A stretch of 64,000 nt of DNA from Yuukianura sp. NJ FZ-2021 (lineage: Eukaryota): contig CM102285.1 of assembly GCA_046563655.1 (NCBI GenBank), positions 12,214,001-12,278,000 of the forward strand. Direction: 5' to 3'. Position numbers and translations under genes: made by a program. Below, piece after piece: positions 1,115 to 63,131 of this stretch (its first letter is position 1; every line of letters starts with the position of its first letter). The notes beneath the pieces are model-generated. The model was given only the letters and a program-made list of their open reading frames with translations, ran no database searches and had not been told where the DNA came from.

Positions 1115-4100
1115 CGTAGTAAGTGCACTTGAAATTCCAGAAGAACACGGAAGAGACTTCGCAGCAGTAGAAGAGGCTGCCGTAGTATTATTGGCAGTCG
1201 AAGTACCAGGCCCTTCGTTTCTCTCAAGATTTATGGGCTCTTGCGGCAGTGAAAGGCTGCGGGAAAACAAACCAAATCATTACATTTTCTTTAATTTCCT
1301 CTCTTTTCTTTGTGGAAATTCACTTCCTTTCAGTAAAATCAAGTCATTTTTCTACAGATCAGCCATAATTGCATTAATGTATCAAAATTGTGTTTTCAAA
1401 AATAAATCGAAATAAAAATACTAAAAAAGCCTAAAAAAGTACACAAAAACCTGTCAATCACTTGCCTCACCAAACAGAACTGCAAATGTAATTCGTAAAT
1501 ACCAGGCAATCTTTGAGAAAAAATTCAACCGGCGTCAAACTAAGCTTTTGTGGCTAAAACTGAAAAATTACAAACTAAAATAATTCTGTTTGTGAAAATT
1601 CACCGCTTTTAGCAATTTATAGTAAACTTTTTTTTCTACAGCTTTTGGCCTACTTGGTCAATATAAGAATAAGAATTTTCATTAATCAAATTTTGAAGCA
1701 CAGCTTCCCAAACCTCCCACTCCCACTTCATATTGTAACTGTATTTTCCTGAATTCATAAATGGGAGGGAGAAATTTCAAAAAAGGTCAACTGGCGTCTT
1801 ACTATAAAATCACTTTTTCAAAAAAAAATCAAAATTACGAAAATACAGTACATGGAACTAAACTTTAGGACGAAGAAACAAAGTTTTTAGACGCGCGTGG
1901 GAGTGAAAAATTCTTGATTTTCTTTAGTATTCGAAATGCAGTAGCTCATAAAATTTATGATTTGTGAGAAAGGTGACGATTTGTTTATTTTTACAAATAA
2001 AAAACCTAAAAATTGGCAAACTCAGCAGAGAAATCCTAAACGTAAACAATGTTTTTGTCTTCTTCGAAGCATCGCAGCATAGTTTTTCCCAGAGCACAGA
2101 TTCTAGCTCAAGGTTAAAAATTGTGCAAATTCTAAAAACAAACAACGATTGAAGTTCCCTGCTACTGTTTGTTTTCAATCTCTCATTTTCTAACATTTCA
2201 GCACATTCCATGTTCCAGTTTCTCTGGAATGCCCTCTGGGTCACTTACTGAAAAAATTGGGTCGCAGAAACTAAATTTTACGATCCTGAAATTTTGATCT
2301 TGCGTAAGACAAATTTTAAATTCAGGAATATAAGATTTTTTTTTCAAAGTCAAAGTTAAATCAGATTTAAAATCAAGCCTTGTTAATCCGCACTTTGTAT
2401 GCTCAAGATTGTTTTTAAGATTCAAAAGAGAAAGACTATTTTTCCATTTTAAGTGTCCAACTTTTCGTTTTTTATGTCTTTCAATTCATTTTGAACACTT
2501 TGAACATTGAACTTATTTTGTCTGTAATTTACGATGACTGGGATGATGAGAAAGATCTTCCCTCATCCTCTACAGTGGCGGCCAAAATTATTGGGACACC
2601 CAGTGTAAAAATTTTTAAACAACGATAACTTTTTAACGAAGTGTCATAATTAATAACTCGATACGTCATTTTATTCAGAAAATAGTTCTTTCCAATCTCC
2701 CAAGTTTTTAGAACTTGAAGTCAAGCGGTTTATTTTATGGAATTTTTTAAACTCAAAACGTCAAAATTCTCGCGGTCAAAATTATTGGGACAGCTGGGGT
2801 TTTGGAACGAAATCAACAGTTATTGGCATTAATCTTCCATCGGTAAGTCACCTAACTTAATTTTTAGTACTTACTAACACTTGTAGTTAATTGTTGATTA
2901 GTTTTTCAGAGATGGTTGGCAATATCAAGGAAGTTCCAGGACCGATACGCGACCTAATCATTCAAGGTTGGGTTGGTGACGAAAATGGTACAAAATCAGT
3001 TCGTCAGCTGTCCGAATTGTACCACGTACCCAAGTCAACAGTACATAGCATCATACAAAGGTACCTCAAGACCGGCCATGTCGAAAACAAAGTCGGAAGG
3101 GGCCGTAAACCAATTCTTACTGAGAGGGAAGTTCGCCTGATCACCAAGAAAGTGAAGCTGGACAATCGAGTAAGCGCCGTAGCACTGTCCAAAACACTCA
3201 AAAGTGACCTTGACACGAAGTGAGCGGAATTTATCCATAATTCCGTTAATAAATTCCAAGGTTCCAGCCCCGTTTGTAGCCATGCAGCCCCAAACCATGA
3301 CACTGCCTCCTCCGTGTTTCACAGTCACATTGAGGTTCTTTGGTTTTAAGGCTTCACCAATACCTCTTCGGACATATTTTCGGCCATCTGACCCCAAAAC
3401 GTTGAACTTTGACTCGTCCGACAATAAAATTCTTTCCCAAAACGATACCGGCTTCATAAAGCGTTCTTTTGCAAACTTCAATCTCTTGGCTGCATTCTTC
3501 TTTGACACAAACGGTTTTCGCAACGGCTTGAAAGCTCTCAAATTCTGATTGCAAAGTACTCTTTGAACAGTACGGGGGCTGACTTCGGTGTCAAGGTCAC
3601 TTTTGAGTGTTTTGGACAGTTCTACGGCGCTTACTCGATTGTCCAGCTTCACTTTCTTGGTGATCAGGCGAACTTCCCTCTCAGTAAGAATTGGTTTACG
3701 GCCCCTTCCGACTTTGTTTTCGACATGGCCGGTCTTGAGGTACCTTTGTATGATGCTATGTACTGTTGACTTGGGTACGTGGTACAATTCGGACAGCTGA
3801 CGAACTGATTTTGTACCATTTTCGTCACCAACCCAACCTTGAATGATTAGGTCGCGTATCGGTCCTGGAACTTCCTTGATATTGCCAACCATCTCTGAAA
3901 AACTAATCAACAATTAACTACAAGTGTTAGTAAGTACTAAAAATTAAGTTAGGTGACTTACCGATGGAAGATTAATGCCAATAACTGTTGATTTCGTTCC
4001 AAAACCCCAGCTGTCCCAATAATTTTGACCGCGAGAATTTTGACGTTTTGAGTTTAAAAAATTCCATAAAATAAACCGCTTGACTTCAAGTTCTAAAAAC

Positions 4101-7304: not shown

Positions 7305-9486
7305 GCGGATAGGAAAATTAGGAGAGTTTCGAAATAAAAAAAAGTTGAATGGCGTAAAGGTGAAAATTGGAAAATGAGTGGAAATTTTTACCTTTTTTTT
7401 TAAAAAAGCAAACCTTAAGCGTTAATTGAAACGATGAATGACTAATTAATGTTGTGTTTTAGTGTGTACCTGGTGACCGGAAGTGGTGTTACTGGTAGTA
7501 GTCTGTGAGTACTTGTCAGACAGATATGAAGACGGAGAGAAAGCAGAAGAGGAAGAAAGTAAAGATGAAAACTTGGCAGTTCCAATAGAAGATGCAGAAG
7601 AGATAGAATAGGAATTGGCTCTAGAAAATGATCCAGAAGCAGATCCAGAACTAGTCCGTAGTGCTGGACTTGTCTAAGAGCACAACGGTCAAAGGTCAAC
7701 AACTCTGTTTTAGCAATTAACAAGCTAGGTCAAGAAAACCCAACGTCAAAGTTATACGCCACTGCATTTAATTCAGGAATTCGTCATGCCTCATCAAATA
7801 ACTGCAGGTTATTTGTCTCGAGGAGTTCAGGAGAATGGCGTTAAATTTGGGCAGAAATAAATTTTTAGATTGCGTTTAGAACAATTTTTTGAAAAACTCA
7901 TCCAGAATCACTTCACAGGCAGAATTTTAGATGCTAGATTCTGGAAAAACTAATAACTTTTGTTTACATAAGTTTAATGGATTTCTGTCATAAGACTAAA
8001 AGATCCGGAAAAATAAGGGGGCTCCACGCTTCCAGTTTCTGGAAAAGTGCACTCTTCAGCATTTTCCGGATTTTTGACACTTCAATTTCAACTTAAGCTT
8101 GCGGCACGTTCCGACTTTTCATAAAATCTCCTGGAAGGCTCCATTTGAAATATTTGTTCAACCACAAAGTGGTATTTTTAGAAATCGATATATTTTTTTC
8201 ACATTTTTTAGATTTCGAAATCTACAGATTTCAGCGTTCCAGCATCATCTGTGCACAGGAGACTACTAACAAATAGGGGATATTTATATGCTTGGGTTCG
8301 CTTGGCTCGTCTTCCTTAAACAAATTAAATTTGTGCCTTTGAAATATTTTTTTTAGAAAAGCTACGGTTATGACCCCAACATGCCCGAGAAATGCAGAAA
8401 AAGTAAAAGATTTGCCAAGAAACCGGTTCGTTAATGCCGTAATCCACAAGAAATGGCGGCCGGCAGATGGTGAAATGCAAAACCATTTCAATAGTTGAAG
8501 AAGCTAAAGTATTATTAACTTTAATAGTAGTTTAAGTAATCATTAAACTTACGTAATTGGACCGATTGGAAGCCATGAGCCCAGTGGCAGTGGTTTACCA
8601 CACAAACCCGTTACACTTACAAATTATAACACGAAAAAAGCAACCACAGCTGAATTTTTGATTACAATCACTTCTGGTTTTTTGGACATGCCGAAGTAGA
8701 TGATTCTGCCACTGTTGTCCCCTCTTGAAAATTCAATTTCCATAAATCACTAAAAACTGAAACGATAATGCTGGCAATTTGTATACAAATATTCTTGAAA
8801 ATGCAAGATGTTTTCAAAAAAGAGAGTTTGTTCTTGGAATTTTTGAAGTGCTTTAGGTTCAACTTCCAGTTGCAAACAGAAAGAACCAGAAAATCAACTG
8901 AGTACATCCGAAAAAACAACCAGAAAAGTTCTTCACGGGAAACGGAAGAGGAATCTTCCCGTCTTTTTTTTACTTTCTAAAACTTCGGCTCCAAAGTTGC
9001 TTCTAGTATTGAGACTCTATTTTTAGAATATTAATCCGCTTTTGGCATCTTCACGAATATCAACTCAAATGGAAAAACGGAGAGCGTTAACTTCAGTGGC
9101 AGAAAAAAAAAGTTCAAGAAAGTCAATTCCAGTAAATCCGAAAAAGTTTTCAGAGGATTTTCTCTTTTTTTACTTGGTTAGCACGCGGCATTATCGTCAT
9201 AACGCATATGACACTTATATTGATGTTGTAGATTTTAGAATTGGACGTTAACCCTCGTCGTCAGTTAGTTTTCAGTGATGGTGGTACGGGAGCACTTCAA
9301 GTAAGACAATTGAAGTGATCCCTACAACTAACACTGCTTTCAATTGATCAAATGAAGTCTAAATTTAACAGAAGATCGGACATGATAAATGATAAGTGAT
9401 GAATTTAAAGTGAAACTAAATGCAAAAAACACTGCATGAAGGAAAACAAAATTAAAGTCGATCTCTTGGAAAAAGAGAGTATAGCC

Positions 9487-10511
9487 TCACTTCTCATCTT
9501 TACTGAGTACATCAAAATTGGAGACCAAATCGGGAACTTCGTCGTCACTGTCCTCAGCATCACCTTGTTCGCCAGCATCCGCCTTAGCGGCAGTCTCGAG
9601 AGTTTGACCAAACTTCTGTTGTGCTCCAGTGTAAGCGAATCGCTTGACATGCTCAAGACTCTCTGGTCCCATTTGACTCAGGATTTGTGGCAGCATCTCA
9701 GCGACCTCTACAATTCAGAAAAAAACGTCATTTTAGATTATGTTTTCTAGATATACCTTGAACAGTACTCGTAGTTTTTGAAATTGAATTGACAACTGGA
9801 AAGTTACCTTTCGTTTCACCATGTCCAGTTATAGCAAAGACATTTGAGCTAAGCGAAGCTTGAACCTTGGGATTGTTGAAGTGAATTACCGTACCGTCAT
9901 CCTTGATCATGTTTACCTAACATGAGAAAAAGAGAATAATGTAAATGAAACCTAGTTCCCAGGAAACGTTTCAAGATAATCAATGATACCTCCTCAATCC
10001 CAGGAATAGTGGTAACAGCTAGCTTCTTCAATGTGGATTGAAGTTTCTTGTCATCAGTTGTGGCACTTCTGTGAACGACCTTCTTCTTTCGGCGAACAGT
10101 TCCTTTGCCACCAATGCGGACGTTTTGGGACATCTTCGCAAGCTTGTCCATTTTATCTTTCTTATCCGTATCCATGATCTGCAAATTAAAATGACATTAA
10201 ATTAACATACAAACCATGCTGATTCATGATCACCACCATTGAAGATTACTAATGCTAAATTGAAGTTCAACCCTTGAATCATTCAAGTTGAATGGCCTTG
10301 TAACATGCAGAAACAAAGGAAAACACAAATCGAACGATACTCCTACTTGAATAGCCGTGGTCAGCTGATCTGACCAGTATATGAATTTCGTTGTTGTGAA
10401 CAAAACCACTGAAAACGATCGAATTTACTAATGATTAGCTTAGTACGCTTTAGCTTTGTACTAGAATAAGAAAGGAGGGGAAGAGAAACGAGATTCCTAG
10501 ATTCTTACCAT
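9487..10511 (-). CDS. BTF3: Transcription factor BTF3 / NAC beta subunit (bicaudal)
   Basis: [68 protein letters not shown] across spliced exons. Start is either an ATG at the end of exon 1 (10511) or 10175. Confidence 0.95.
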
Positions 10512-11076
10512 GAAGATGAGTTGTGACTACTGGAGAACGACCGCCTAAGTCCAGAAAGGAGAGGAACTGGCCAAGAACCAAGATTCTTCCTGGAGCTGTA
10601 TCAGTGATTAACTGATTTTTAATCTTCACTGATTACGTAACTTAAATTTTACACACAAATGACTACAAAACAGTACATTGTGAATGAGAGAATGGAAAAC
10701 ACGCTGCTCCTGCTTTTGGAGGATTCATCCAGAATTTTTTCTTGCAAAGATAATGCCCAATTCCTTAGCTATTCCCAGACTCCTTTCCAAACCCACATAC
10801 GATTCAGCACTGCTTTTTATGCAATGCCGTAATGCCGAGGATAACCAAAGGCAGGGGTCAGTCTGTACAGTATTTAGAAAATCTCAACCGCTGTTTAAAA
10901 GCACCGTTAGATTGCGCCCACCTCGCCAACCGATAAAAAAGCAAAAGAATTTACACTTTCTGTAATTTATTGTTGATAATTACAATAAATACAATAAATT
11001 CGTACATTCTTTATGTTTATTGTTACCATTTACACGTAGATTAACTACAAAAAATAGGTTAGGTTAATAAATATGT

Positions 11077-11447
11077 TTTTGTCGTACTTCCTCTCCCGTC
11101 AATAGTCCATAGTAAAGGAACTACTAACGAATGGAGAGTACAAGTACATTTACTCTTTACCCCGGGAACTATCCTATTAGATTACTCCGGAAGGGAATGC
11201 AGAATTGCTGCCTTGACCCTTGACCTCGACAACTGCTTCCACAGATATCGTTGAGTAGATCTTTAGATAAGATTCCTTACGGTAAATCGAGACTACCCAG
11301 GAGTTTTTTATTGCACGAAAACTCCGGAGCTGAAAAAACGTGTTCTCTGTCAGTGAAAGGTTTCGGTTAGGTGGAAGGATCGGTGACCTGGCAGAAGTTG
11401 GACACGTCTGCCCCCCATCCTGTCAGGACGACCAACAAATCTCGACT
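11077..11447 (-). ncRNA. Candidate telomerase RNA (TTAGG template, pseudoknot, box H/ACA 3' domain)
   Basis: TCAGTC initiator (11449-11444); 10-bp P1 (11447-11438/11294-11285); template ACCUAACC (11372-11365); pseudoknot CACG-UUUUUUCAGCU-CCGGAGUUUU-CGUG-CAAU-AAAAAACUCCUGG; box H AGAGUA (11156-11151); 25-bp hairpin; ACA (11082-11080). Folded manually. Confidence 0.72.
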
Positions 11448-11773
11448 GAATCAAAAAAATCAAAATTCTTGACATTTCGGATTTCTAAATTTTGGAGGCG
11501 GTAAAAAATCTAGCTTAAAAAATTCAAATTTTTCTTGGCGCGTTTTGCGTCTCAACACGTACAAAGTCTATTAAAATTTGCAGAACAATAGAGTAATGTT
11601 CTAAACTCACTATATAATTTAACTAATTTAATTATATAGTTTAATTAAATACTTAAATCAGCGTCTACTGATAAAATAATGGTGCCTGTACTTGAATAAT
11701 CAAGACATATAAATAAACTTGCGTTTATTCAACTGAAAACTGTAAATGGTAAAACAGAATTATATCTGAGAAT

Positions 11774-13281
11774 TTATGCTCCCTGTTTTTGAGCAGCTTC
11801 CTTGACCTTGGCTCGTTCAATCTTGGCAATTCTTGCTGCCGATTTGGATCCGAGCACACCACCACCCCAGTGTCGTCGGAGTTCATCGTGACGATCATTG
11901 AAGTTGGTCTTGATGGCTTCAAGGAGTTTGGAGAATTGATTCCGATCACCACTTTCGACCTGAGAACAAGAAATCAGAGTTTATCTTCACTATTCGATAC
12001 TAAACACAAATCGATTGAATCTAAATTTTGTTCTCAGATGGTAGTGCATGTTTGTATAATCAGACAGAGCTCATAAAATGTGGTAAGAAGTTGACATCAT
12101 GGAAGTCAATAAGCTAATGACATGGCGGTTACGAATCTTACCGAGGTGAGGGCCACGCAAGTGCAAGTCTTGCGATTTACTAATCTTCCAAGACGAGCCT
12201 TTCCTTTGATGATACAGTATGGAACTCCCATCTTCCTGCACAGGGTTGGCAAGAACAGCACCAACTGAAAAATAGTAAAAAGTATAGTTTATACTTTCGT
12301 GAGTAAAGTTTTAGAGTAATTTGAATAAGGAAATAGGATACTCAGGGTTAAAAAGCTCGAATTTTAATCCACATGATGAATTCAGGTGAAGAAATTCAAA
12401 AACATCACTGATTCAATGGAAACCTTTCGTAAATCAAGTAGATCACTCACCTCAAGTGGCTCAACATCATGCGAAATTACAACGAGCTGGGCTTTCTTCT
12501 GCTCGATGGCTCGTGTAACGCTATTGGCTCCTTGTTTCAATGCTACCAATCGCTTGCTTGGTGCTGGAGCAGCATCTCCTCCCTTCACCTTGCCTTCAGC
12601 CTTTGAGCGGAGTCGGGCCTTCTTTGCTGCTCTGGTTTCTGGCTTGTACTTATCCAATAACCGGAAGAGCGACTTGGCTGTAACAATTAAAACGAAATAT
12701 TAGCACAAATCTAGTGTCGAATTTTTTATACGATTCTCACTGTCACTGTCACTACCCTCTGACTAACGTCTTTTACTACGCTTCCGCAGTAATTTCAGAT
12801 GGATAAACATGCCTTACCTCGGCCGAGCACCGTCATTGTACCATTAGAGAAAGGTCATCAGATTTTACGCTTCACGGTAAAACCGATTTCCGATCTCCCG
12901 GTACTACATAGTGCAAATGAAAGGCTTTGTACCTGTTGCCCGGTCCACAGTATGGCGGAACTGGTTGATTGGTGGTGGAACCTTGAGTCTCTCCTGAAGA
13001 ACTCTCTGTTGACGTTGGACACGGATGTATCTTGGCCATTTTACAAATCTGCTGAGGTCACGGGTGGGTTGAATATCTTGTCCAATTCCAAAGTTTCGGC
13101 TTCGCTTCTCGAACAATGGGTTTTGCTTCTTCTTGGCCTCGGTTTTCTTGATAGCCAGTGTTGGTGGGGCTGCTACTTTCTTACCAACTCCCTTCTTCTT
13201 ACCCTGTAAAAATACGCAACAATGAATAACAATCTCAATATTACGGAAAGTAACGAGCTTCCTTACCTTTTTCTGAACCAT
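11774..13281 (-). CDS. RpL7A: 60S ribosomal protein L7a (eL8)
   Basis: [63 protein letters not shown]; five coding exons with GT-AG boundaries; AATAAA at 11729-11724. Confidence 0.97.
12031..12104 (-). ncRNA. SNORD33: Box C/D snoRNA U33 (SNORD33/snR55-like) in RpL7A intron
   Basis: Box C ATGATGT, box D CTGA, guide ACATGCACTACCAT-CTGA as recalled for vertebrate U33; complementary to 18S UGGUGGUGCAUG; short ttc/gaa terminal stem. Confidence 0.85.
12340..12411 (-). ncRNA. SNORD36: Box C/D snoRNA U36 (SNORD36/snR47-like), dual guide, in RpL7A intron
   Basis: Box C GTGATGT; D' guide TTGAATTTCTTCAC-CTGA (complementary to 28S GUGAAGAAAUUCAA); D guide GAGCTTTTTAACC-CTGA (complementary to 18S GUUAAAAAGCUC). 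Confidence 0.9.
12789..12868 (-). ncRNA. Candidate box C/D snoRNA (family unassigned) in RpL7A intron
   Basis: TGATGA (12860-12855) and CTGA (12798-12795) about 60 nt apart, internal ATGA, GTAA/TTAC flanking stem, in an enlarged intron of a snoRNA host gene. Confidence 0.55.
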
Positions 13282-13348
13282 TTTTGTGATTTCTAATTAC
13301 CGGATGGATGAAACGAAGAATCAACTGTCTTCACACTGTGTCCAGTAC

Positions 13349-13365
13349 CTTATGCCGAAAAGAAT
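13349..13365 (-). promoter_or_regulatory. TCT/5'TOP start and non-coding first exon of RpL7A
   Basis: attCTTTTCGGCATAAG|gtac: pyrimidine start at ~13362, donor at 13348, 56-nt intron to an acceptor just before the ATG. Confidence 0.7.
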
Positions 13366-13922
13366 GGACTAAAATCTCCCAGATGAAGATGTGCAGATCT
13401 TTGCATGCCTCCTCCACTGTATCATGGCCGCCGGTGCGCGAGGGGTCCAAAAGCATGCTTTTTTCGAAGGGGGTGGAATAGGGGAGGGAAGGGTGAGGAT
13501 TTCTACTATCCGCACCCAATGCCGCACCAACGTGTTGCACAAGCAAAATGTTTGTGTGCGTGAGATAGATAGTGACTTTACATTACTGCGCACATACAAA
13601 ACAAACAATGCAGAAATAACGGAGTAAACGCAATACTGAAACTTAATTACATTAATTTAACTCTATTTTAATTAATTTAACGTAAAATTAAATTCAAAGG
13701 ATGTTTATAGTATCCACTCCAATTAAATTCTGTTTCACACAACAGTGATGAGCACTAGATTGTACATGAGTGAATTCTGCAGAGTAGCTTCCATTCGACG
13801 AGAGGTGGCGCTTAAGTTTTAAGGAAAAAACAGCAACGACGCCTGCATAAAAATGAAATCCAGTATCCAATTTAATTTTAATGTTAATTAATTGTAAGGT
13901 TAAGCAATTGTGTTACAATTAA

Positions 13923-17355: not shown

Positions 17356-20300
17356 GTAAAACTTTGGTAATCATTACACTTTAAACTATCAAATTAAATT
17401 ATTAGGTTCAAAATAGTTCATCGTCCATCGTTTTATCTAAATTTTTCTTGGACTTTGATTTCAATTCATTTTGGAAAGCTATGCATTAGCTTTTTTACTT
17501 CCAGCATTTCCAGACAGTTGTTTTGATTCAGAATTGAATACTGCCAATTTATGATGTTTTTCTTTTGACGCATTGTTTTGCACAAGTACGACTAATTGAA
17601 ATATTTCTAAATTAACACTTTAGGATTTTTCCATAGTAATGAAACTGTCGTCGGCATTTTGGACCTGAGACAATGGTACAGTTAAAAATATTTCTGTGTC
17701 AAGTTTATGACCAATTCATGCTCGACATCACGTAAGTCACTACGTAATTTCGTTAATTGAAAAATAAAAACACTCCGCCGTTAGTATTTTTAAACCAGAA
17801 GCACTTTGATTCCTAGCCTTTTCCGTTCCTCAGAATTCAAAGTTCATCGTTTCTCTTTTTTAAGAAAATCAGTTTTAACTTAAAACGTGTCAAATTAAAA
17901 GTGATTAATTCTCAGTTTATATCGCAGGTTATCAAAAGTTATCGTTGCTGTTGAAAAGCCAATCACGTGGAAATGGAAACACAACTACTGCAGAAGCAGT
18001 CTAGGACTCCCCTCGTGCCAGGTCAAGAGGTCAACCAATCTCGTTAAAAAGTCCTTATTTACAAGGCTTGTCGTGAACCAAGTCTCTTCTACTATCTCTT
18101 GTGCACCGGAATTATATTGATGTAACAACTTAACTTGGACATTCGTTGACACGCTGAATGAGATAAACTTTGAAATACTTTTGTCCAAGTTAAAATGTGG
18201 GGTAGTTGGACCTTGGAGTGAAGCATCTTCGAAGTTCAACGTTCCTGATGCCACTGCATTGGAAGAGTGTAATCGCTGGAAAGATCATTCAGTTGGGTTT
18301 TAGAAATTAAAGTGAGGAAACAGGAGAAAGTGCTCTGGAGAGAAAGTAAACAACTTTCTTCCAGATCACCACTACATACTTTGCTAAAAGATAAATTGCA
18401 GTTCACGAACTTTTCTGCAGCAAAACACAACTTTACAATGGAAAAAACCAATGAGGTTAGTAATGTTTAACGCTAAAAATTACTTTTACTATACTTTTCA
18501 CTAACAATTCAAAAGCGAAAAACCAATTGCCCGTATTTTTTTTTCACATTTTTTTTGGAGTGTATTCAAAGATTGATTTCTTTACAACAAAAAATATAAA
18601 AATGAAAAACATGTAAAACTTTTCACTTTCTCCAAATTGACATTTGCCTATTAGGTTTGCATATCATAATTTAGAAAAATAAAATAACAGGAGAGAGAGA
18701 ATTTTCAGACTTGAACATTCAGGTGAAAGTTCAAGTCGTGCAAGGTTCATAATTGACTTGAAAAACTTTTTTCTGCAACAAAAAAAAATTCAGTTGGTTT
18801 AACTTTTCCAACGAATTCTGTTTTGTTTTTGACAAATTGAACAAAACTGAAACTGAAATTTATTTTTGGCAAAAGTCCTCACTATTCCAGTATTCCAGGC
18901 TTGTTTTTTATGGAAGTTAGAAAAAAGCGAAAGCCGCTATACTGGCGCCAGGAAGTCGCCCAATAACTTTCTCCAAGTCATGTCGTTGCTGGCTTCGCTT
19001 CCTTTCTCGTAGCCCAAACCAGCAAAAAATGGAAAACGGTTTTCACAGGGCATGTTTTCTGCAAAACGAGTTAAGCCTCAAGCGCTAATGTTCAGTTTTT
19101 TTTTTGCAAACTGAGCCATAGAGAGGTTCTCCATCTTTGTTCCAAATGCAGAACATGGAACGATGATTTTTTAAACCTTGTTTTCTAAAAATAGTCACAC
19201 CCATATGCAAGCAAATAAAAAACTTCTCAGGAACTCTATCCCTGCTCCGTCACTCTGTTAAGTCTCGCTTCGAAACGCAGGATTCTGTTTTGAAAAGTGA
19301 GGCTTTTCAAACCGATATTTTTAGAAACCCGTGTTCCATGTTCTCACAAACTGAAATCTTACGAGGATCTTTGAATCCTCTGCTTTCAAAAAAGGATTGA
19401 TGAGAAAGTGAGCTTTTAGAACTTTATGAGTGAATTGCTAGGCAGCCATGATCTGTCTCCACGTGCCTTTTGTCCGTGCAGCCTCTTTTGCTTCTCCGTT
19501 TTTACTTTCATTTTAAGGTGAAACGCTCCGCTTTTAGACGTGAAACCTCTCAGCATCTTCGTTATTTAAAGTGGAAATGCTTTTCCCACTTTCCCTTTTA
19601 ACGATTTCATCTACAAGCGCTCCAAATTGAAAGTGAAAACTTTTAAGTCTTTACCTAAACGATGCTTTCCAAAATTGAGACTTTTCGGGTACTTAGAAAA
19701 GCACAAGATGAGTCCAATTTCTGAAAGAAATGAAAGCAATAATAGTTAGACTCAAAAACATGGAAATCTTCGGTTTTTTAAAACTTTTTGCACAAGTTGT
19801 GCACAAAGGGCTTTAGATTTTCCATCTTACTACCCAGATTTGTGATGAAACTTGAAAGTAAATTGAAATGAGAGTAGTCTGGGTCGTGGGAAGGAAATGA
19901 GGTGAGGATTTCTGTTCGTGTCTTCCTCTGGGACTTTGACTTTCAGTCTTGTCCTGATCTTGTACCAGAAAACATAAGCTTTCAATCTTACAATCTGAGC
20001 GTCATCGTTGGATTTATAGGTTGACTAGATCTAGTAAGGGGAAAGTACAATTGATTTCCTGGCAGGCATAGAGTGTCCCTAGTGACGACTTTCCAAATTG
20101 GGTTTTAGTGACAAGGAAATGACAAAACAAGGCAAACTTTCTCCTGTGTCCCTGCTTTCACCAAAGACTTTTTGTGTTGAAATGGAACTGGTGAAACCTA
20201 ACCTAACTTCTATTGTGTCATTTCAATTGAAGTAGTCTGCCTAATCATTTAGTCAAATTCAAGACCTAATGTAAATTGGGATGTGATGCGCAAGTATATA

Positions 20301-24933: not shown

Positions 24934-25984
24934 TTTGAAATTAGTTAAAACAAACGTGACGTATGTTTTTGCAAATCTTGACCTTCAATTAATTTAACTT
25001 GTTGATCTAGGAATGTAAGTATCTAGCTTTTTAGCATACAAAAAGCACTTTTTTTTCAAAGAAAGAACAAATTCGAATTCGAATTTTCGAAATTCAAAAT
25101 TTGAATTTGACAAAAAAAAAATAGAAATTCACATTTGAAATTGGCGCCATACACCAAAATCCGTTACTGTACGAATAGCATTGCTAAGATATACTGTTAC
25201 ACAGAGCCCCGCCCCTTTGTGCCATTTCGCGTGAAAAAAAAAACGAAAATTTAACAAATACCTATATCTCTATGTAGTACTAGTACTGTTGTTCTTACTA
25301 TAGGTACTCTCCTCTCAAACAATCCTCATTTCGTTTACACATATCCTGCTCTTCTTTTGAGAAAGTTTAGTGTTGAATTCTATCGGGCGAGAAGTTATCT
25401 AATTAGAAGCACAATTAACTTAAATTTAACGTTAGCCAAGTTAAAACAGAGTTAGAAACACCTAGATCAAGGCAGTAGTTAATTAGGTTTACGTTTAACC
25501 TTTCTGATTGTAAAATCGGAACTCCTTTCGGAAACTCGCGAAGCTCATTTAATTGAGATAAAAATCTCAATTAACTCAGTTTTTTACGCTGATTTCGAAT
25601 CTGTAATTAGTTTTGGCCGCTCGTTACCCTAACTTAACCTAACCTAACTTTAACTAAAATGTGCCCCCATGTATGAGATAGGGAGAAGTGAGATGCCCAG
25701 AGCTGTTACTCTGAGAGAAAGTGAAATTCCCTATCTCTCCCATAGAACCTTCGCGAGTTTGCAGAAGATATACCGTAAAATCTACGTTTTGCCTTTCGTG
25801 TTCGTCCATTCTTGTCTACACTCCGTTCCAGCTGATGTTCAGTTGATTTTGACGTGTACTGTTTGGTTTGCCATTGAAGGTTAGTTCACAGAAACAGCTG
25901 GTAGTTTGTATATCGTTTCAGTCGTGCGATCTAACTGTGTTTTATAACCAGATACTACTGAGAACACGTGAATCCAGGATCGAG

Positions 25985-32503: not shown

Positions 32504-34135
32504 ATGTCCGTCCTTGAAGATACAAAGCGACAGACACGGAACGATGAGCATGACATTTCAAATACTTGTCCATTTCTGGAACTACCAAGGGAAGTGAGTA
32601 CCCCATTTTAATTACCTTAGTTGAGGATTTATGCTGAATCTGATTAATTTGTTTTCTAGCTCCGTGTACTGATCTACTCAAAATATTTGGCCAAAACGGA
32701 GCAAAAGGTGATGCGGCTGATAAACCGTCAGGTCAAGCTGGAAGTTGAGCAAAGTGTGGACTTCCATATCAAAATTGATTCTGAGAGTTTTCGCCAATGT
32801 CGCAGATTGATGGCTCTACGGGCAGACGCATTGACCATTTTGAGTCTTCCGAAACGGAAAGCGAAACCGTTAACGCCGAAGCATCCAGGAAAAATCAGGA
32901 AGATCACATTTGACGGAGCAGTGCAACCATCTTGCGCAGCAAGGATCCTCAAGAAATGCTTCTCGCTTTCTCATCTCAGCTTCACCAATGAAACCCTCCA
33001 CTACAGCAGCGACTTCCAACAATGTCGCCAACTGCGTGAAACTTTAGAATCGTCTTCACATCTCACCCATTTGGGCATCCAGTTTACCCGGCAGCCAGGA
33101 GCCAATCCATATTATCCAGTGGATTCAAACGTATCATTTTTCCTTACTTCCACATTCAAACATCTTACTTCGTTTAAATTATTTTACTCCCTCTGGGGAA
33201 ATTGGTTGGATTTGTTTCTTTTCCTAACAAGACACGCTGGATCTCTTCAGTTCCTGGAGCTTCAAGTGGGCGATCGCTGCGACGTCAACAACACCACGTT
33301 ATATCTACGCCGACACCCGCATTATAACCTACTCGAAATAATTGAACGCGATGTGCTGCGTAAGCTACAGCTCAAAGAGTTACGGTTTAGAGACGAAGTC
33401 CTTCATTTGAACCCGACAAGCAGTTCACTGATTTTCGAAATCCTGGCTCAACAGAAGTCACTGGAGAAACTTCATTTCCATTCTCAAGGGGACATGACCC
33501 AGCCAATGCTGAGCAGCATCGTAGCTGCGAATCAGACAACTTTGCAAGAACTTGTCGTCTACAACTTCACTGGAGCTGAAGTCCGATTGCCATTTGCTCC
33601 TCCTAAGCTAAACATGGACATGCGCCAATTCTCGGCATCGTCACACCTCAAAGTATTAGCACTCTCGTCAGTTTCTCCAAACCGCCGCAGCTTCTCTCCA
33701 ATTGCTGCGACAAGTATGAGCTCCCTTCCGTCATCCCTGGAACGAATCCACCTCACTGGCTTCAATTTGGAATTAGTTGACACTGTTCAACTGTCTACCA
33801 AACTTCCGAACCTCAAGGAACTGCTGATTGCTGATTGTCAATGTGATCTGCGTTTTTCCAAAATATTTGGATCCTTTCTAATCAATTGCCCAAGGTTGGA
33901 ATTTGTCAGCATCAGTCCAGTGGGTCCTCCGGAACCTGAATTTGCACTTCATGTGGAGGCTGACATCATTGAATTATGTCGAATGTATTCAAGATTTATG
34001 GCTGTTGATTATAATCCAATTGACAGTTTTGGATTTGAAGCTCGAAAGTTCACTGATCTGGACAGGGAGTGGGCTAAAGCAACGATCAACCTCGAAGAGT
34101 TTCGTATTTTAGTACCTCATACAACGGGACAGTGA
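32504..34135 (+). CDS. F-box protein with LRR/RNI-like C-terminal region
   Basis: Exon 32504-32593 splices in frame to 32660, giving FLELPRE|LRVLIYSKYL...MRLINRQ (F-box-like), followed by LxxLxL repeats. Confidence 0.75.
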
Positions 34136-51125: not shown

Positions 51126-52238
51126 ATGAAGCCAAACGTGTTTTCAAAAAGTGGACACGCTTCTGTCTCTATTTGGTGTCGGAACAGGATGTTGGTCCTT
51201 TCTGTTCTTGTTGCGACGCTGATAAGCGGTAAGTGTTTTTAAAACAACAAAAACTTTTCAAAAAACTTTAAAAAAGATTTCCAAAAAAATAAACAAAACT
51301 TTTACACTCCCAAAAACAATGCATAAGAATAACGTCTTCCAATAAAAACCGAAAAACCATCCAGGTATTTTTTAATTTTCATTAGGTTTTTTCGCCTCAA
51401 TGGTGGAATAGTTATGCATTTTTTTTTCACCTAATTTTAAAATTTTGAAACAAAAACTCAAAATTTTCTTTTTTATGCAGGAGCAAATTCTTTGAAATGC
51501 TACCGATGTTTGAATTTGGACTGTCCACAAGGTGACCTGGGAGAGGTCAACGAGCGCCTGTGCCAATCAGTTCGATCCCACATTATCAAATCAATTAACC
51601 ATTTTTACGAAGTTGGACCTGCTGGATACATTCCACCATGTCCAGAATTGGACGAAACCGTTCAATGGACACTTCTACAACATACGACCAATGAGTGTCC
51701 AGAAATTCGGGAAATGGCGACATGTTCTCTCGGGAGAATTCAAATCATAAGTGAATTCAGTGGTCGAACGGTCGTCTCCCATGCAACTATTCTTGGATGT
51801 CTGAAATCAGCTCTCTTGTACTACATGCAGAAATATGGAAACAATGTCCAAAGTTGTAGCATTTTCAGACAAAATAGTACCGTTGGTGACACATTTCAGC
51901 ATTCACTCAAATTGGAAAATTGTCCAAAAGTAACGGACTATTGTAAAACCAAAAACTACTGTGTCCCATTTAGTGAAAGCGTCGTTAGGCCCTTCCAGGA
52001 CAAAAACAGTAGCAGTTCCTTTGAGTCTGGGATTGTCATTGCAATTATTGTTGTAATTTTGGTCGTTGTGAGTATTGTTCTTTTTGCAAGTTTTTGCAAA
52101 AATCCGTTAAACAGAGGAGCCAATTACTCACCAACGGAAGTCCAAAATGCTGCGTCAATTCGGGACGTCGAAACGCCAGAATCTGAACTTCCGTCAACTT
52201 CCAGTTCTACCAAGGAGAAAGATGACGTGTTTACATGA
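51126..52238 (+). CDS. Cys-rich single-pass membrane protein, paralog 1
   Basis: Signal-peptide exon (51126-51228, phase 1) then LKCYRC...; 12 spaced Cys, TM helix, short cytoplasmic tail. Confidence 0.8.
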
Positions 52239-53697: not shown

Positions 53698-56006
53698 ATG
53701 AACAAATTAGTTCTTGGGTTCTTTGTAAGTTTCAACATTCATTTATTAGAGTAATACTTTTTTTTTTAATTTTTCAATTTGGTGACGTTTGGATTTGAAT
53801 TTAGGCGGTGATTGCGGTTTTGGCAATGACTGCTGATGCTGGAACTATAGGACATCGGAAGTACAAAGGAGACGACAGTGGCGAACATAACAGTGGCGAA
53901 CACGACAGTGGGGAACACGACAGTGGTGAACATGACAGTGGGGAGCACGACAGTGGTGAACACGACAGTAGCGAGGAGGACTGGGATTGGAATTGGTACG
54001 ACTGTGAATCAGAAGGGAAGTTCCCGCATCCAACGAAATGCTGGAAGTACGTCTACTGCGTCGACGTAGGGTTTACACTATTGCCGATCTCTCTCCCGTG
54101 CTTGCCATTCCATCACTTCAGTGAAGAAAGAGGACGATGCGTCTTTGGCCCATGTTAGTCAAACTTTAAAATTGTTACATCTACTTCTAAATTGAACTAA
54201 AGTAATCTAAAATGCTACGTTGTATCTTCAGGCGAAAATCCAACACCGGCACCGACTGACGCTCCAACAGAAGCTCCAACTGAGGCCCCAACAGATGCCC
54301 CAACTGAAGCTCCAACTGAGGCCCCAACTGAAGCACCAACAGAAGCTCCAACTGAAGCACCAACGGAAGCTCCAACTGAAGCACCAACAGAAGCTCCAAC
54401 TGAGGCCCCAACTGAAGCACCAACAGATGCTCCAACTGAGGCCCCAACAGAAGCTCCAACTGAAGCACCAACAGATGCTCCAACGGATGCACCGACTGAA
54501 GCTCCCACTGACGCTCCAACTGATGCCCCAACTGAAGCACCAACAGAAGCTCCTACAGATGCTCCAACTGATGCACCGACTGAAGCTCCCACTGACGCAC
54601 CAACTGAGGCCCCAACAGAAGCTCCAACTGATGCCCCAACAGATACTCCAACTGAGGCCCCAACAGAAGCTCCTACAGATGTTCCAACTGATGCACCGAC
54701 TGAAGCTCCCACTGACGCACCAACTGAGGCCCCAACAGACGCTCCAACTGATGCCCCAACTGAAGCACCAACAGAAGCTCCTACAGATGCTCCAACAGAG
54801 GCTCCAACTGAGGCCCCAACCGAAGCTCCAACAGACGCTCCAACTGATGCCCCAACTGAAGCATCAACAGAAGCTCCTACAGATGCTCCAACTGACGCTC
54901 CAACTGAGGCCCCAACCGAAGCTCCAACTGAGGCCCCAACCGAAGCTCCAACTGAGGCCCCAACAGACGCTCCAACTGATACACCGACTGAAGCTCCCAC
55001 TGACGCACCAACTGAGGCCCCAACAGAAGCTCCAACTGAGGCCCCAACCGAAGCTCCAACTGAGGCCCCAACAGACGCTCCAACTGATGCCCCAACTGAA
55101 GCACCAACAGAAGCTCCTACAGATGCTCCAACAGAGGCTCCAACTGACGCTCCAACTGAGGCCCCAACCGAAGCTCCAACTGAGGCCCCAACCGAAGCTC
55201 CAACTGAGGCCCCAACAGACGCTCCAACTGATACACCGACTGAAGCTCCCACTGACGCACCAACTGAGGCCCCAACAGAAGCTCCAACTGAGGCCCCAAC
55301 CGAAGCTCCAACTGACGCACCAACTGAGGCCCCAACAGAAGCTCCAACTGATGCCCCAACTGAAGCTCCCACCGACGCTCCGACGGAAGCTCCAACTGAT
55401 GCCCCAACTGAAGCTCCCACCGACGCTCCGACAGAAGCTCCAACTGATGCCCCAACTGAAGCTCCTACTGAGGCCCCAACCGACGCTCCGACAGAAGCTC
55501 CTACTGATGCCCCAACTGATGCCCCAACTGAAGCACCAACAGAAGCTCCAACTGAGGCCCCAACAGAAGCTCCAACTGATGTTCCAACCGATGCTCCAAC
55601 TGATGCCCCAACTGAAGCACCAACAGAAGCTCCAACTGACGCTCCAACTGATGCTCCAACTGAGGCCCCAACAGAAGCTCCGACTGAGGCCCCAACAGAC
55701 GCTCCAACAGAAGCCCCAACTGATGCACCGACTGAAGCTCCCACTGAAGCTCCTACTGATGCACCAACAACACAAGCTCCATCCGGCGAATGCACTAAGG
55801 AAGGGTACTTTGTCAACCCGAGCAACTGCAACCAATTCTATCGCTGTTACGACAACGGTTACGAATTGGTCCGAACACCAATGGAATCCTGTTCCGAAAA
55901 ATGGCTCATCTTCTGTGAAGCGAAGCAAACATGTGCCGATCCCAACTACGTTTCATGCCCAAATAACCCGTGTGACCGCGCATATCATTTTTGGAACCTG
56001 TTTTAA
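53698..56006 (+). CDS. Secreted mucin-like peritrophin: CBM14 domain, (APTE/APTD)n mucin, CBM14 domain
   Basis: Signal peptide, DSGEH repeats, [19 protein letters not shown] (ChtBD2), intron at ~54153-54231, long PT(E/D)A repeat, second ChtBD2 ([19 protein letters not shown]), stop at 56004-56006. Confidence 0.9.
54249..55770 (+). repeat. 12-bp coding tandem repeat (~125 units) encoding A-P-T-E/D
   Basis: GCNCCNACNGAN units, directly visible. Confidence 0.97.
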
Positions 56007-56875: not shown

Positions 56876-58349
56876 ATGAGTCGTGCACCGATAAAAGTGT
56901 CCCATTCGATTACGCTGAGCCAACCACCGGCGGCAGCATTGCCCAGCAAGCCACCCATGGGAGCTCCCAATATGGCTACTGCAAAACCACCAAGAGGCAG
57001 GTCACCATCGCCATTGCGTTTGCCTAAACCGCTGTCAGCTTCGACTCCGCAGTCTGCTCGCAGTAGTAGTAGCAGCAGCAGCAGCGCTGGAAGCTGGTCA
57101 GCAAGGTCATATGGAAAATCAACACCAAGGGCTCCCAGTCCTAGCACGGAGTCGGAGATTACTGCCTTCAATTTGACTCCGATGGAAATCCTTCAAGTAG
57201 CAAAACTAATTGAACAAGCTGCTTGCGCTAGGGGTAAAAATCCACGGGAGTCATTGAAAGCCATGATTCGCAAAGTACGAGCTCCGGATGACAATACTGG
57301 AATCTGTGATCTGGATCATTCGTTTGCAAGCTTTCTACCTTATCCTTCATTTTCAACTGCTGGTTTTGGGAGTATCGTACAACCTAACTTGAATGAAACT
57401 GTTGATTCAACTGCGGGGAATCTAAATGGTAAGTGGTAAGGATATCACCTTTCACAATTTATTTTTTTAATTTTGTTGATTACTAACTAGAATTGTTTCC
57501 TTTTAGACTCTGAGGATCGTGTACCGAAGATACCGCACAACAAGAATGCAACGCTCCTAGAAGATATCGATAAACCCGAGGAAATTGCCCAAATGGAACG
57601 CTTAGCTAAAGCCAGGAAAGAGCTTAGACAACAACGCTTGGAGAGAATGAGGCTAAAACACATTGCTGAACGAAATGAAATTCTCTCACCGAATCTAGTT
57701 TGTAAGTTTTAGAATTCAGCGTAATTTATGATTTCCGGTTGGCTTGTTCTCAGGCGATATGATAAATGATAATGATACTATAGTTAGGCCGTTTTCATTT
57801 CATGATCCGATCCGAAGTTTTGTATGGAGGAGATGGATCTCCTCCACACAAAACTTCGGATCATGAAAACGGCCTGACTTAAACATAACTAACACTGTGC
57901 TTTACCTTTTTTAGCTTCCGTACATAAAGGGATTGATGCTATGACAGAATCACTGGACAAGTTCTACGCATCTCCAGCATTCCAAACGATGAAGTCAAAT
58001 GGTTCAGTTGAACAGGGAATCCCGTGCCCCATTGCAAAAAGGAAAGAAATGATTCAAATCTTTGAAAATCTGGAGAGGATCAGTTCTACGCAGTTTTCCA
58101 CTGATCAGAAGATTGATTCGGCAAAGCTCGAGGAGTACATTCAGCATCTAATTACAAAAACGGTAACGCTCATACCGTTTTCATACAACTTCTTACTCAA
58201 TAAGCTTCAACATTAGTTTTACAACATTTGCTGTGTTTTTGCAGAATTCAAAAGCTACTTCTCTGGATAAGTCAATGGCAGAGTTGAAGAGTACTAGCAA
58301 GAGGACTGCGGAACTGTTGGACCAATTAGAATTAGTGAAACGACTTTGA
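56876..58349 (+). CDS. Uncharacterised four-exon protein (Pro/Ser-rich N-terminus, coiled-coil-like C-terminus)
   Basis: Exons ~56876-57428, 57508-57701, 57916-58162 and 58245-58349 with GT-AG boundaries; last junction checked in frame; no recognisable domain. Confidence 0.6.
57787..57874. mobile_element. Short palindromic MITE-like element (Harbinger/Tourist-like ends)
   Basis: GGCCGTTTTCAT...ATGAAAACGGCC with internal GATCCGAAGTTTTGT.TGGAGGAGAT/ATCTCCTCCA.ACAAAACTTCGGATC; flanks TTA/TGA. Confidence 0.6.
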
Positions 58350-59558: not shown

Positions 59559-60420
59559 ATGAATCGTCATCCCTCGGTAATTCGTTGCTGGATCTGGACA
59601 ACGTCTGTCATCATCGTTGCGTTTATGAGTGTTAGTGTACTACAAGTTGGTGAGTGCGTTTTTACTTTTGCGGAAAAGTAACTGATTGAGATCAACTTTT
59701 TTACTACTAGATCAAGTACAACTGTGATTTTTTGTTCCAGAATGTGCAGAGTTCAAACCCCTCAAATGTTACAGATGCATTTCCATGGAATGTAAAACTT
59801 CTCCAGAAATTTGTGCCTTGGCAAAATCTTTTGTCCAATCAGAAGTAGAGCGACATTACTATACCGATGGCTATCCGCTTCCAGACTGTCCAGATCCATC
59901 CAATCTAGAAGAATGGGCCATCCTAGAAACAAAGGCACCAAGTAACATCGCTTGCGGAGAATTTGCAACTGGGCAAGCGACGTGTGTTCTTGGAAGGTTC
60001 CAAGTCAATTCCCTCGTTGTCGAAACTGAGACAAATCAGACGATCTACGGAAATGTCATGGGATGTGCAAACAAACGTTTGCTGGAAGCCGTCCGAGCTA
60101 CAACGCTTGTCAAAGAACGAAAATTCGAAAACCCGACGGACACCATTTACGGCTGCCACTCCGATTTCAGTGAAAGTGGTGTTCGGAATTCCTTGAAGCA
60201 TTATCTCCGCTTGGAACACTGCGCCCAAATCGCTTCCATGTGCTACCAGAACAATTACTGCATTCTTCCCGCCTTGACTGGTGTTCGTGACTTTACTACC
60301 AATCGGTATAACGAACTGAATGCACCAGGAATAGGATTGTTCACGATTTTCATTGTGGCAGCGGCTGTTATCGGCATAATAGTGGCAATAATGACGTTCG
60401 CGGGCATCAAGTATTCTTAA
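59559..60420 (+). CDS. Cys-rich single-pass membrane protein, paralog 2
   Basis: Signal exon, phase-1 intron, LKCYRCISMEC...CVLGRFQV...GC...LEHC...C...YC, C-terminal TM ending GIKYS. Confidence 0.8.
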
Positions 60421-60617: not shown

Positions 60618-61439
60618 ATGGACCAGAACACTGTACTAGATATCAGAATCCTTGCACTGTTTTTTCTTTTAACTTTTGTATCTCAGACACTGTCACAATT
60701 AATTGGTAAGTATACTTTAATCTCAACTTTTTCAAAATTTTTCTAACCAATCAAAATTCAACTACAGTATTTTTGATTTTCAGGACCCCAACCTGCAAGA
60801 CTGAATTGCTACAAATGCGTAAACTACAAATGTTCCGACACTGACGACTGTAACTCCCTTCAGCAGTTTGTCCAGCATTCTCTGAAACGATTTTATCAAG
60901 TTGAAGCTCCAGAAATACCAGAATGTCCAGACCCGTCAGATGAAGTTGGCTGGGAGAGCCTGAAAGTGGAGCAACCAAATCCAGTTCCATGTCAAGGGCC
61001 ATGTACTCTCGGCCGATTCCAAGTGACCTCTACGAGTACAAGTGACGAGAGGAAGACTGTTAGCTTTGGAACAGTATTCGGATGTCCAAAGGCACAACTC
61101 TACTGGGACATTTTATATCCGAAGAGGACTCCAGAAATCAAAGGAGCGCGGCCAAAGATATGTCGCTTTGACAATGTCACCTCGGAGTCCATTGGAGTAT
61201 TAAGTTGGGGCATGCGCAATGAAATGGCATTGGAACACTGCGCTAGACTTGGTGATATTTGCAATTCCAAAAGTTTTTGTATTAGCCCTCAGGCGAGTAA
61301 GATTTTGCCGTTTGTCCAAGCGACAAGCGATGACGCTTCGGGATATTCTGGATTCATTTTCTTCGTAATTTTATTCGCAGTAATCATCGGGGTGTTGATT
61401 ACGCTCGTCACTTTTCTTGGAATTAAATATGACGTGTAA
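60618..61439 (+). CDS. Cys-rich single-pass membrane protein, paralog 3
   Basis: Signal exon, phase-1 intron, LNCYKCVNYKC...CTLGRFQV...GC...LEHC...C...FC, TM ending GIKYDV. Confidence 0.8.
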
Positions 61440-62136: not shown

Positions 62137-63131
62137 ATGTTAAAGTTTGTAGCCGCTGGAATATTTTTGTGCCTTCTGGCTGCCATCATACAGGGTAAGA
62201 ATTTTAGCTCATCGTTTCCACGGAGGGAGTTAGTTAACCTTACCATTATGCTAACTTGCTACTTGCCAACGCTACTTGCTACTTATTATTGCTAATACAT
62301 CTTTGTTAATTAGTAATCATGAAGGCAAATTAATAGTTAAGTTAACGATTTTTGAGTAAAGATGAAACGTTAATACTTTTTTCAGGGACGGAGTCTCTCA
62401 AGTGCTACAAGTGTCTTAGCTTGGACTGTCCCGAAGGTGGCTTCGGAGAAAAGAACGAAAGACTGTGCCAATCCGTCCGCAGCTTTATCATAACCTCGAT
62501 TAACCAATTTTACGAAGTAGGAGTTGCCGGGTACATCGGAGTTTGTCCAGCAAGGGAAGAGACACTTCAATGGACTCTGTTGCAACAGAATCCAACTTCG
62601 GAGTGCTCAGAAATCCGGGAAGGAGCGACATGTTCCTTAGGCAGACTTCAAATCCTGACTGGCGGAAGTACTGAGGAACCAGTCGTATCTCATGCAACTA
62701 TTCTTGGATGCTTGAAACCAGCTCTTTTGTATCACATGAAGAAGGCAGCACCCAGTAGCAGTGCAATGGCGTGCAGCATTTACAGACAAAATAATACTGG
62801 AGCAGCACAGGCCCATTTTGTCCATCACTTGATGCTGGAAAACTGTCCGAAAGCTACTGACTACTGCAATGTCAAGAACTTTTGTGTTCCTTTTGAAGAG
62901 AGCGTAGTCAGAGTGTTTCATAGTCGGAAGGTGGATCATTCCTTTGAAAATGGACTGATCATTGGCATAATTGCGCTCATCGTGGTCCTTGTTCTGGTGG
63001 CTTATATTAGTGGAACTTGCGTGAATCCGCTAAGTCGCAGCTCAAATTACACTCCAGCGGTCATGGTCAGAACTGATGAAGAAAATAGTCCTGCAGTGGA
63101 ACTGGATGCCAAAACGAACGTCATTGATTAA
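62137..63131 (+). CDS. Cys-rich single-pass membrane protein, paralog 4 (closest to paralog 1)
   Basis: Signal exon, LKCYKCLSLDCP...NERLCQSVRS...CSLGRLQI...SHATILGCLK...LENCPK, TM, NPL..SNYTP tail. Confidence 0.82.

Follow-up and report, generated by a model that had tools for sequence, protein, structure and literature searches.

Telomerase RNAs (TRs) of the H/ACA type have been identified in several groups of protostomes, with the accessible text of PMC8480181 listing molluscs, annelids, brachiopods and phoronids; the validated TR of the apple snail Pomacea diffusa described there consists of 408 nt, with a template-pseudoknot (T-PK) domain in positions 1-146 and a P4/5/6 element in positions 162-335. 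Its template is 8 nt long and is bounded by a P1.1 stem. According to the same text, structure-based searches for arthropod TRs failed in 2020. The TRs described later, from Hymenoptera, Lepidoptera, Trichoptera and Coleoptera, are small RNAs devoid of the CR4/5 element and the H/ACA domain; for Lepidoptera, Coleoptera and Hymenoptera, the core-closing helix P1 is also reported to be missing and the promoters to be of the small nuclear RNA (snRNA) type, with a PSEA (PMC9841428, PMC11892584, PMC13023368). For example, the lepidopteran TR, a 135-nt RNA with all three of these elements missing, retains P1.1 together with a pseudoknot whose P2 is short (PMC11892584), and the same core is reported for beetle TRs (excerpts of PMC13023368). 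A hymenopteran type has been described as well, and the RNA types of other arthropods are stated to be unknown in the accessible passages (PMC9841428, PMC12133305). A survey of titles and abstract openings, with subscription journals and bioRxiv supplements outside its range, yielded no published report of an H/ACA-type TR in any arthropod. Here we analyze a candidate for such an RNA in a 64,000-nt stretch of contig CM102285.1 from Yuukianura sp. NJ FZ-2021 (hereinafter, the window), which an earlier note, made from the sequence alone, had proposed to be the telomerase RNA of this species. We assign a probability of about 0.72 to the reading that this locus is the host's telomerase RNA gene and is of the classical animal (H/ACA) type; the identification is supported albeit unproven, with every test performed pointing in this direction and none contradicting it.

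Template-pseudoknot core, long arm and H/ACA end of the candidate

The predicted RNA, 371 nt in length, occupies positions 11077..11447 on the minus strand of the window, its 5' end being deduced from an initiator-like element and the start of P1 and its 3' end from the ACA box plus 3 nt; the RNA positions given below equal 11448 minus the window coordinate, in the minus-strand reading. Each motif and complementarity listed in the earlier note was found in its place on this strand, where the sequence contains no open reading frame (ORF) with a start codon. The predicted fold of the RNA is thermodynamically plausible, with a minimum energy of -120.2 kcal/mol computed with ViennaRNA (z = -3.49; none of 100 shuffled sequences was as good), and the plus strand of the same segment yields a z of -1.45, with 8 of 100 shuffles as good.

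The strongest single feature of the candidate is a pseudoknot of the triple-helix type, which is rare by chance. This H-type pseudoknot (11297..11342, minus strand), delineated from sequence, fold and a structural descriptor, consists of P2 (RNA 106-109/131-134, CACG/CGUG), the U-rich loop 1 (110-120, UUUUUUCAGCU), P3 (121-130/141-151, CCGGAGUUUU/AAAACUCC(U)GG) and the A-rich loop 2 (135-140, CAAUAA). The parts that had been claimed are all there, including the A-run and the closely following 3' strand of P1, and the 8-bp core of P3 (123-130/141-148) has a pair probability of 0.96. The human P2b/P3 region is a triple-helix pseudoknot, and the descriptor, built from the vertebrate P2b/P3 plan, specifies a 4-bp P2 followed directly by at least five U residues, a loop 2 of 3-10 nt and a P3 of at least 8 bp in which the 5' strand ends in UUU and the 3' strand starts with AAA. 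Within the window (both strands, 128 kb), the candidate site is the only match, and the same holds for a relaxed version of the descriptor (P3 of at least 6 bp, U run of at least 4); matches were detected in 2 of 200 dinucleotide-shuffled windows, and there were none in 47 other, unrelated loci of eukaryotes, which add up to 257,078 bases over both strands. The pseudoknot begins 23 nt past one of the five CCTAACC words of the window.

The core that encompasses the pseudoknot appears to be closed by helix P1, in which the first 10 nt of the RNA (AGUCGAGAUU, 11438..11447, minus strand) are complementary to positions 154-163 (AGUCUCGAUU, 11285..11294, minus strand), a strand that begins 2 nt past P3. 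In accord with the earlier description of a core of ~160 nt delimited in this manner, 9 of the 10 pairs are used in the minimum-energy fold (2-10/154-162), with a mean pair probability of 0.91 and a duplex energy of -10.8 kcal/mol. The template, ACCUAACC (RNA 76-83, 11365..11372, minus strand), is present as reported, equals 1.6 copies of the complement of TTAGG and is predicted to be more than 90% unpaired, with per-base probabilities of 0.90-0.98; of its 8 nt, 5 would be copied and 3 would serve for realignment, giving TTAGG repeats.

On the 5' side of the template, several short hairpins joined in a three-way junction had been drawn. The complementarities and the basal helix are real, but the junction is not the preferred fold (-27.8 kcal/mol versus -51.5 kcal/mol for the minimum-energy fold of the T-PK domain, the latter including three small extra helices). 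One long hairpin of 58 nt (RNA 12-69, 11379..11436, minus strand) is formed instead, with a pair probability of 0.93 for its basal helix (12-17/64-69) and its base 6 nt upstream of the template. In animal H/ACA-type TRs, a boundary element of the P1.1 or P1b type is expected just 5' of the template, and the position of this hairpin makes it a candidate template boundary element resembling P1.1. As modeled, the candidate combines a P1-closed template-pseudoknot core with a putative capacity for U.A-U triple-helix formation.

Downstream of the core, a long arm (RNA 163-291, 129 nt; 11157..11285, minus strand) is predicted to form a stacked stem that leads into a junction with hairpins 198-221 and 223-259, the helices having pair probabilities of 0.73-0.99 except for one isolated pair at 0.51. 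The complementarities noted previously in this arm are genuine, but one of the proposed helices, GGAAG/CUUCC, has a pair probability of 0.00 and is replaced by the two-hairpin junction. At 237-249, a 4-bp stem closes a loop of 5 nt, and this element is mounted on an extended stem and does not constitute a free P6.1. The layout of the arm, a candidate eCR4/5 (P4-P6), fits the eCR4/5 of protostome TRs as described in the accessible text of PMC8480181.

The 3' end of the RNA is made up of box H (AGAGUA, matching ANANNA; RNA 292-297, 11151..11156), with unpaired probabilities of 0.79-0.99, a 3' hairpin (RNA 301-364, 11084..11147), with helix probabilities of 0.91-0.98, and a mostly unpaired box ACA (RNA 366-368, 11080..11082), located 1 nt past the hairpin and 3 nt before the predicted end, all on the minus strand. 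The earlier note was correct about these components, the ACA plus 3 nt included, but had counted 7+6+12 bp in the hairpin, compared to the 6+6+10+2 bp of the minimum-energy fold. Given the assumed 3' end, the predicted succession of a hairpin, box H, a second hairpin and ACA 3 nt from the terminus is that of an H/ACA RNA.

From these elements, we infer a mode of action along classical lines. RNA polymerase II would start transcription at A11447, in the initiator-like TCAGTC. The first 163 nt would comprise the catalytic core, with P1 (1-10/154-163) closing the loop that holds hairpin 12-69, and this hairpin would halt reverse transcription at its base, 6 nt upstream of the template. TERT would copy five template bases per round (T-A-G-G-T), after which the new 3' end, GGT, could re-pair with A81-C83. 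Within the pseudoknot, the first U residues of loop 1 may, like those of human P2b/P3, form U.A-U triples with the four A-U pairs of P3. The A-rich loop 2 would lie along the short P2. The arm would represent the second TERT-binding element, and the dyskerin complex would be recruited by the H/ACA elements (box H, the 3' hairpin and ACA) to form the 3' end and stabilize the RNA.

Transcript evidence, chance expectation and alternative readings

Contigs from one public RNA metatranscriptome run (sampled-word share 0.31) were placed on positions 9400-13400 of the window. One of these, 233 nt long, aligns with RNA 74-305 (11143..11374, strand unstated) with 9 differing letters; it is contained wholly within the predicted RNA and bridges the template, the pseudoknot, the 3' strand of P1 and the whole arm, extending through box H into the beginning of the 3' hairpin. 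The central 232 nt of the candidate are therefore represented in an RNA library, and a contig of this span fits one long RNA rather than a 130-nt small nucleolar RNA (snoRNA). Two contigs of BTF3 are joined across GT..AG introns, and their coding pieces differ from the window at 0 and 1 positions; because they are spliced and so close in sequence, the run appears to contain RNA of this species or of a very close relative. No contig was found over the introns, the gaps that flank the candidate, RNA 1-73 and 306-371, and nearly all of RpL7A, and these uncovered parts are uninformative either way. The 233-nt contig also spans a run of six U residues at RNA 110-115; because this run and a run of four U residues, likewise internal to the RNA, would be expected to terminate RNA polymerase III, transcription by this polymerase is argued against.

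Several observations weigh against the identification as a telomerase RNA. The five occurrences of CCTAACC in the window are close to the ~5.5 expected by chance according to a hand estimate. Shuffling of the upstream 125 nt produced a P1-like closing helix of 9 bp or more in 2109 of 20,000 cases, and a loose H/ACA layout is observed in 1869 of 20,000 shuffles and at 9576 of 127,400 real positions. Chance readily generates each of these three elements (the template word, P1, the H/ACA layout), and most of the features are singly weak. Helix P2 has only 4 bp (-2.6 kcal/mol), and the CAB box motif, UGAG, is absent from the entire candidate RNA. Furthermore, 2 of 34 random 371-nt segments of the window have a lower fold z, so that the fold energy alone is not decisive. 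No Rfam family matches the candidate at E values up to 10, whether the vertebrate telomerase model (RF00024) or snoRNA families. A metagenome scan with the last exon of RpL7A retrieved 47 loci, with most of the top matches being ~1-kb intron-less contigs, and none of these loci showed a BTF3 match (tblastn) or anything similar to the candidate (blastn, nhmmer); the RpL7A-BTF3 interval that the note had hoped to align among relatives was not recovered from them. Because no homolog was found in these 47 loci, with public springtail genomes outside the search, there is no covariation to draw upon. The 233-nt contig, finally, is 96% identical to the candidate and does not reveal the strand, the ends or the abundance of its source, and RNA libraries may contain some DNA. 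Of its 9 differences, 3 are visible, namely, G209U and U216G, on bases that are unpaired with a probability of 1.00, and G274C, which breaks a terminal G.U pair; with 33% of the stretch unpaired, such a pattern is expected by chance about once in 4 cases, and the other 6 differences are near the contig ends.

These substitutions were also considered as a covariation test, which was discarded given that 3 of 9 are visible and the result is not significant. On the strand of RpL7A, the 47 metagenome loci contain a single CCTAACC, at position 175 of locus L013, where it precedes the RpL7A match on its upstream side; on the other strand, the word occurs four times, in L017, L019 and L046. The two better-folding random segments are 57777-58147 (plus strand) and 55488-55858 (minus strand), with z of -4.9 and -5.6, respectively; the second lies in a PTEAPTEA tandem repeat.

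The combination of features was assessed by a rough joint chance product, in which a pseudoknot rate of ~0.01 per window, optimistic in that the descriptor was composed after the candidate was seen, is multiplied by ~0.004 for location within 100 nt downstream of one of the five template words, ~0.1 for P1 and ~0.09 for the H/ACA layout, yielding ~4e-7 per window. By our own estimate, if the genome measures a few hundred megabases and has one telomerase RNA gene, the prior for a given 64-kb window to contain it is ~3e-4. Were the true pseudoknot rate tenfold higher, a real gene would still be favoured.

Among the alternatives, a different structured non-coding RNA, such as an independently transcribed H/ACA snoRNA or small Cajal body RNA (scaRNA) with a long 5' extension, in which CCUAACC and the pseudoknot would be coincidental, is an unlikely explanation, albeit the most probable of the alternatives. 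It draws on the generic nature of the H/ACA layout and the chance frequency of the template word documented above, on the absence of an Rfam telomerase match, of covariation and of a link to TERT, and on the role of RpL7A as a snoRNA host locus. Guide H/ACA RNAs are ~130-160 nt long, consist of two hairpins only, carry guide pockets complementary to rRNA or snRNA and are usually intronic in arthropods. The candidate does not conform to the guide snoRNA/scaRNA type: it has a structured 5' domain of 161 nt, closed by P1, in which the unpaired template and the U-/A-rich pseudoknot ahead of the 3' strand of P1 are not known from such RNAs; the pseudoknot is rare in the shuffled windows and in the 257 kb of other loci; to judge from the spliced BTF3 contig, the locus is intergenic rather than intronic; and none of the Rfam H/ACA snoRNA families matches.

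We consider it quite improbable that there is no functional RNA at all, that is, that a fortuitous structure occurs in intergenic or untranslated region (UTR)-like sequence and the contig stems from read-through, an unannotated isoform of BTF3 or RpL7A, or DNA. The equally low fold z elsewhere in the window and the unstranded contig, with no ends or abundance, would be compatible with such an origin, and scanning very many windows is bound to yield some good-looking false positives. Against this stand the joint chance of ~4e-7 per window compared to the prior of ~3e-4, both rough estimates, the placement of the RNA contig entirely inside the predicted RNA, and the fact that the remaining contigs from this species are spliced mRNA. 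A paralog or decaying copy of the telomerase RNA gene is very improbable: paralogs are known elsewhere, with two in Tribolium according to excerpts of PMC13023368, a single genome window was examined, and the contig differs from the candidate at 9 of 232 positions, compared to 0-1 for the BTF3 contigs, but all domains are intact, the template is perfect, and the 3.9% difference may reflect strain divergence in a fast-evolving RNA, given that the BTF3 5' UTR piece of the run also carries indels.

Neighboring genes and other features of the window

The candidate telomerase RNA gene is located between RpL7A and BTF3, as the earlier note had it, with the last exon of RpL7A on one side and BTF3 on the other, and the three genes share the minus-strand orientation. 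The stop codon of RpL7A is at 11774-11776 and its AATAAA at 11729-11724, and the candidate starts ~277 nt beyond this poly(A) signal. BTF3 has a 5' exon at ~10509-10571 that is spliced to 10178, with the ATG at 10175, where the coding sequence begins; the spliced BTF3 contig gives no sign that the candidate is inside a BTF3 intron. The initiator-like TCAGTC, claimed to place +1 at A11447, is present at 11444..11449 on the minus strand, and GGAUG at +28 to +32 may correspond to the downstream promoter element. SNORD36, a C/D box snoRNA, is found in an intron of RpL7A (12337-12413, minus strand; 70 bits in the Rfam scan), the gene that also hosts it in humans. The Rfam scan detected no snRNA gene in the 64-kb window.

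Short tracts of at least two CCTAA units are present at 11055-11066 (minus strand), 11 nt beyond the predicted 3' end of the telomerase RNA, at 20195-20207 (plus strand) and at 25635-25648 (plus strand, within a degenerate run at ~25628-25660). All three are in gaps upstream of genes, namely, BTF3, an amino-acid-transporter-like gene and the PRP4 kinase gene, and may represent telomere-like sequences of the interstitial kind or, alternatively, a promoter motif. As a sign of TTAGG telomeres, these tracts were considered too weak, the 3 tracts of at least 11 nt comparing with 3 for TTATG and 2 for TTGGG (0-3 among the control units). The tracts at 20195 and 25635 were also tried as candidates for small telomerase RNAs and rejected, with fold z of -1.65 and -1.13, respectively, and no pseudoknot match.

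Elsewhere in the window, four paralogous single-exon ORFs on the plus strand (51441-52238, 59728-60420, 60777-61439 and 62346-63131) code for proteins that are rich in cysteine and have a membrane span at the C-terminus; of these, two were scanned and matched no Pfam family. The ORF at 54201-56006 (plus strand) encodes a long mucin-like (PTEA/PTDA)n repeat with a terminal chitin-binding peritrophin-A domain (CBM_14, E = 5.6e-6). A transposase ORF of the Tc1/mariner type is located at 3035-3913 (minus strand; HTH_Tnp_Tc3_2, E = 6.4e-16), and its catalytic part looks degraded, as no DDE family matched. A single-exon ORF at 32711-34135 (plus strand) encodes a 474-aa protein without a Pfam family, which has one relative, a metagenome protein with 47% identity, among proteins of similar length in a collection of 5.8 billion clusters; with this one match, the apparently lineage-specific ORF was discarded as a marker of the host taxon.

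Host affinity, evolutionary implications and comparison with known telomerase RNAs

The earlier note had tied the evolutionary significance of the RNA to a host among basal hexapods or crustaceans, and the first of these cases seems to apply, with exons of two genes in the window indicating that the host is probably a springtail, although the protein collection contains no named sequence from a close relative. In the maximum-likelihood tree of the TFB1M exon, the host sequence belongs to a clade with support of 100/99 in which the springtail Orchesella is the sole named member, apart from six pancrustaceans, one mollusc, two hemichordates and six vertebrates. The best named match of the FGGY-kinase exon is from the springtail Allacma fusca (55% identity, E = 4e-64, compared to 2e-53 for the next match). 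Judging from these sequences, both genes point to Collembola, and the deep divergence within the group leaves the order undecided. The (TTAGG)n repeat has been found in Collembola and confirmed in Folsomia candida, according to the accessible text of PMC8977481.

We lean toward the broader conclusion that the candidate is the first classical telomerase RNA (P1-closed, with eCR4/5 and H/ACA) of an arthropod and, indeed, of Ecdysozoa, and that the ancestral type was kept by the hexapod ancestor, with the reduction taking place inside Insecta. If so, H/ACA and CR4/5 would have been lost, and biogenesis would have shifted to the snRNA type or to RNA polymerase III, as in Lepidoptera, Coleoptera and Hymenoptera, within Insecta and after the split from Collembola rather than at the origin of arthropods. 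A 2025 review puts forward a change of RNA type 'coinciding with arthropod divergence' and asks for evidence from further lineages of the phylum (PMC12133305); in the opposing view, the insect RNA is a degenerate descendant of the animal RNA (excerpts of PMC11892584). The presence of a canonical H/ACA TR with a template for TTAGG in a hexapod outside the insects would favor descent followed by later reduction, and a transition within insects. Such an RNA might show insect telomerase as it was before miniaturization, would provide a seed sequence and structure for TR searches in springtails, other entognathans, crustaceans, myriapods and chelicerates, and would lead one to predict that springtail TERT retains CR4/5-binding features lost by the insect TERTs.

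The candidate shares with the small insect TRs the TTAGG-type template, a pseudoknot with a short P2 and a P1.1 stem a few nucleotides upstream of the template (4 nt in S. frugiperda, 6 nt in the candidate). Unlike these RNAs, it possesses P1, the 129-nt arm and the H/ACA domain and is ~2.7 times longer, and the P2.1 stem of the insect RNAs is not evident in it; the candidate falls outside the small insect type of ~130-200 nt without P1 closure, CR4/5 and H/ACA.

With vertebrate TRs, the candidate has in common the P1-closed core, the H/ACA 3' domain and the probable transcription by RNA polymerase II. The strand order of the pseudoknot is the same as well: the 5' strand of P2, the U-rich loop, the 5' strand of P3 ending in U, the 3' strand of P2, the A-rich loop and the 3' strand of P3 starting with A. 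The differences from the vertebrate RNAs are that the candidate does not match RF00024, lacks a clear P6.1 and the CAB box UGAG, and has a P2 of 4 bp and a boundary element of the P1.1 rather than the P1b type.

Compared to the protostome TRs, the candidate differs in that its template encodes TTAGG instead of TTAGGG and its boundary hairpin is long (58 nt), and the two are likened by layout, not by sequence. In both, the T-PK core, which includes a boundary stem next to the template, is followed by a long P4-P6 arm that has one or two stems where vertebrates have CR4/5, and then by box H/ACA. The sizes of the candidate and the Pomacea diffusa TR are 371 and 408 nt, respectively, with the T-PK domain in positions 1-163 and 1-146, the arm in positions 163-291 and 162-335, and an 8-nt template in both.

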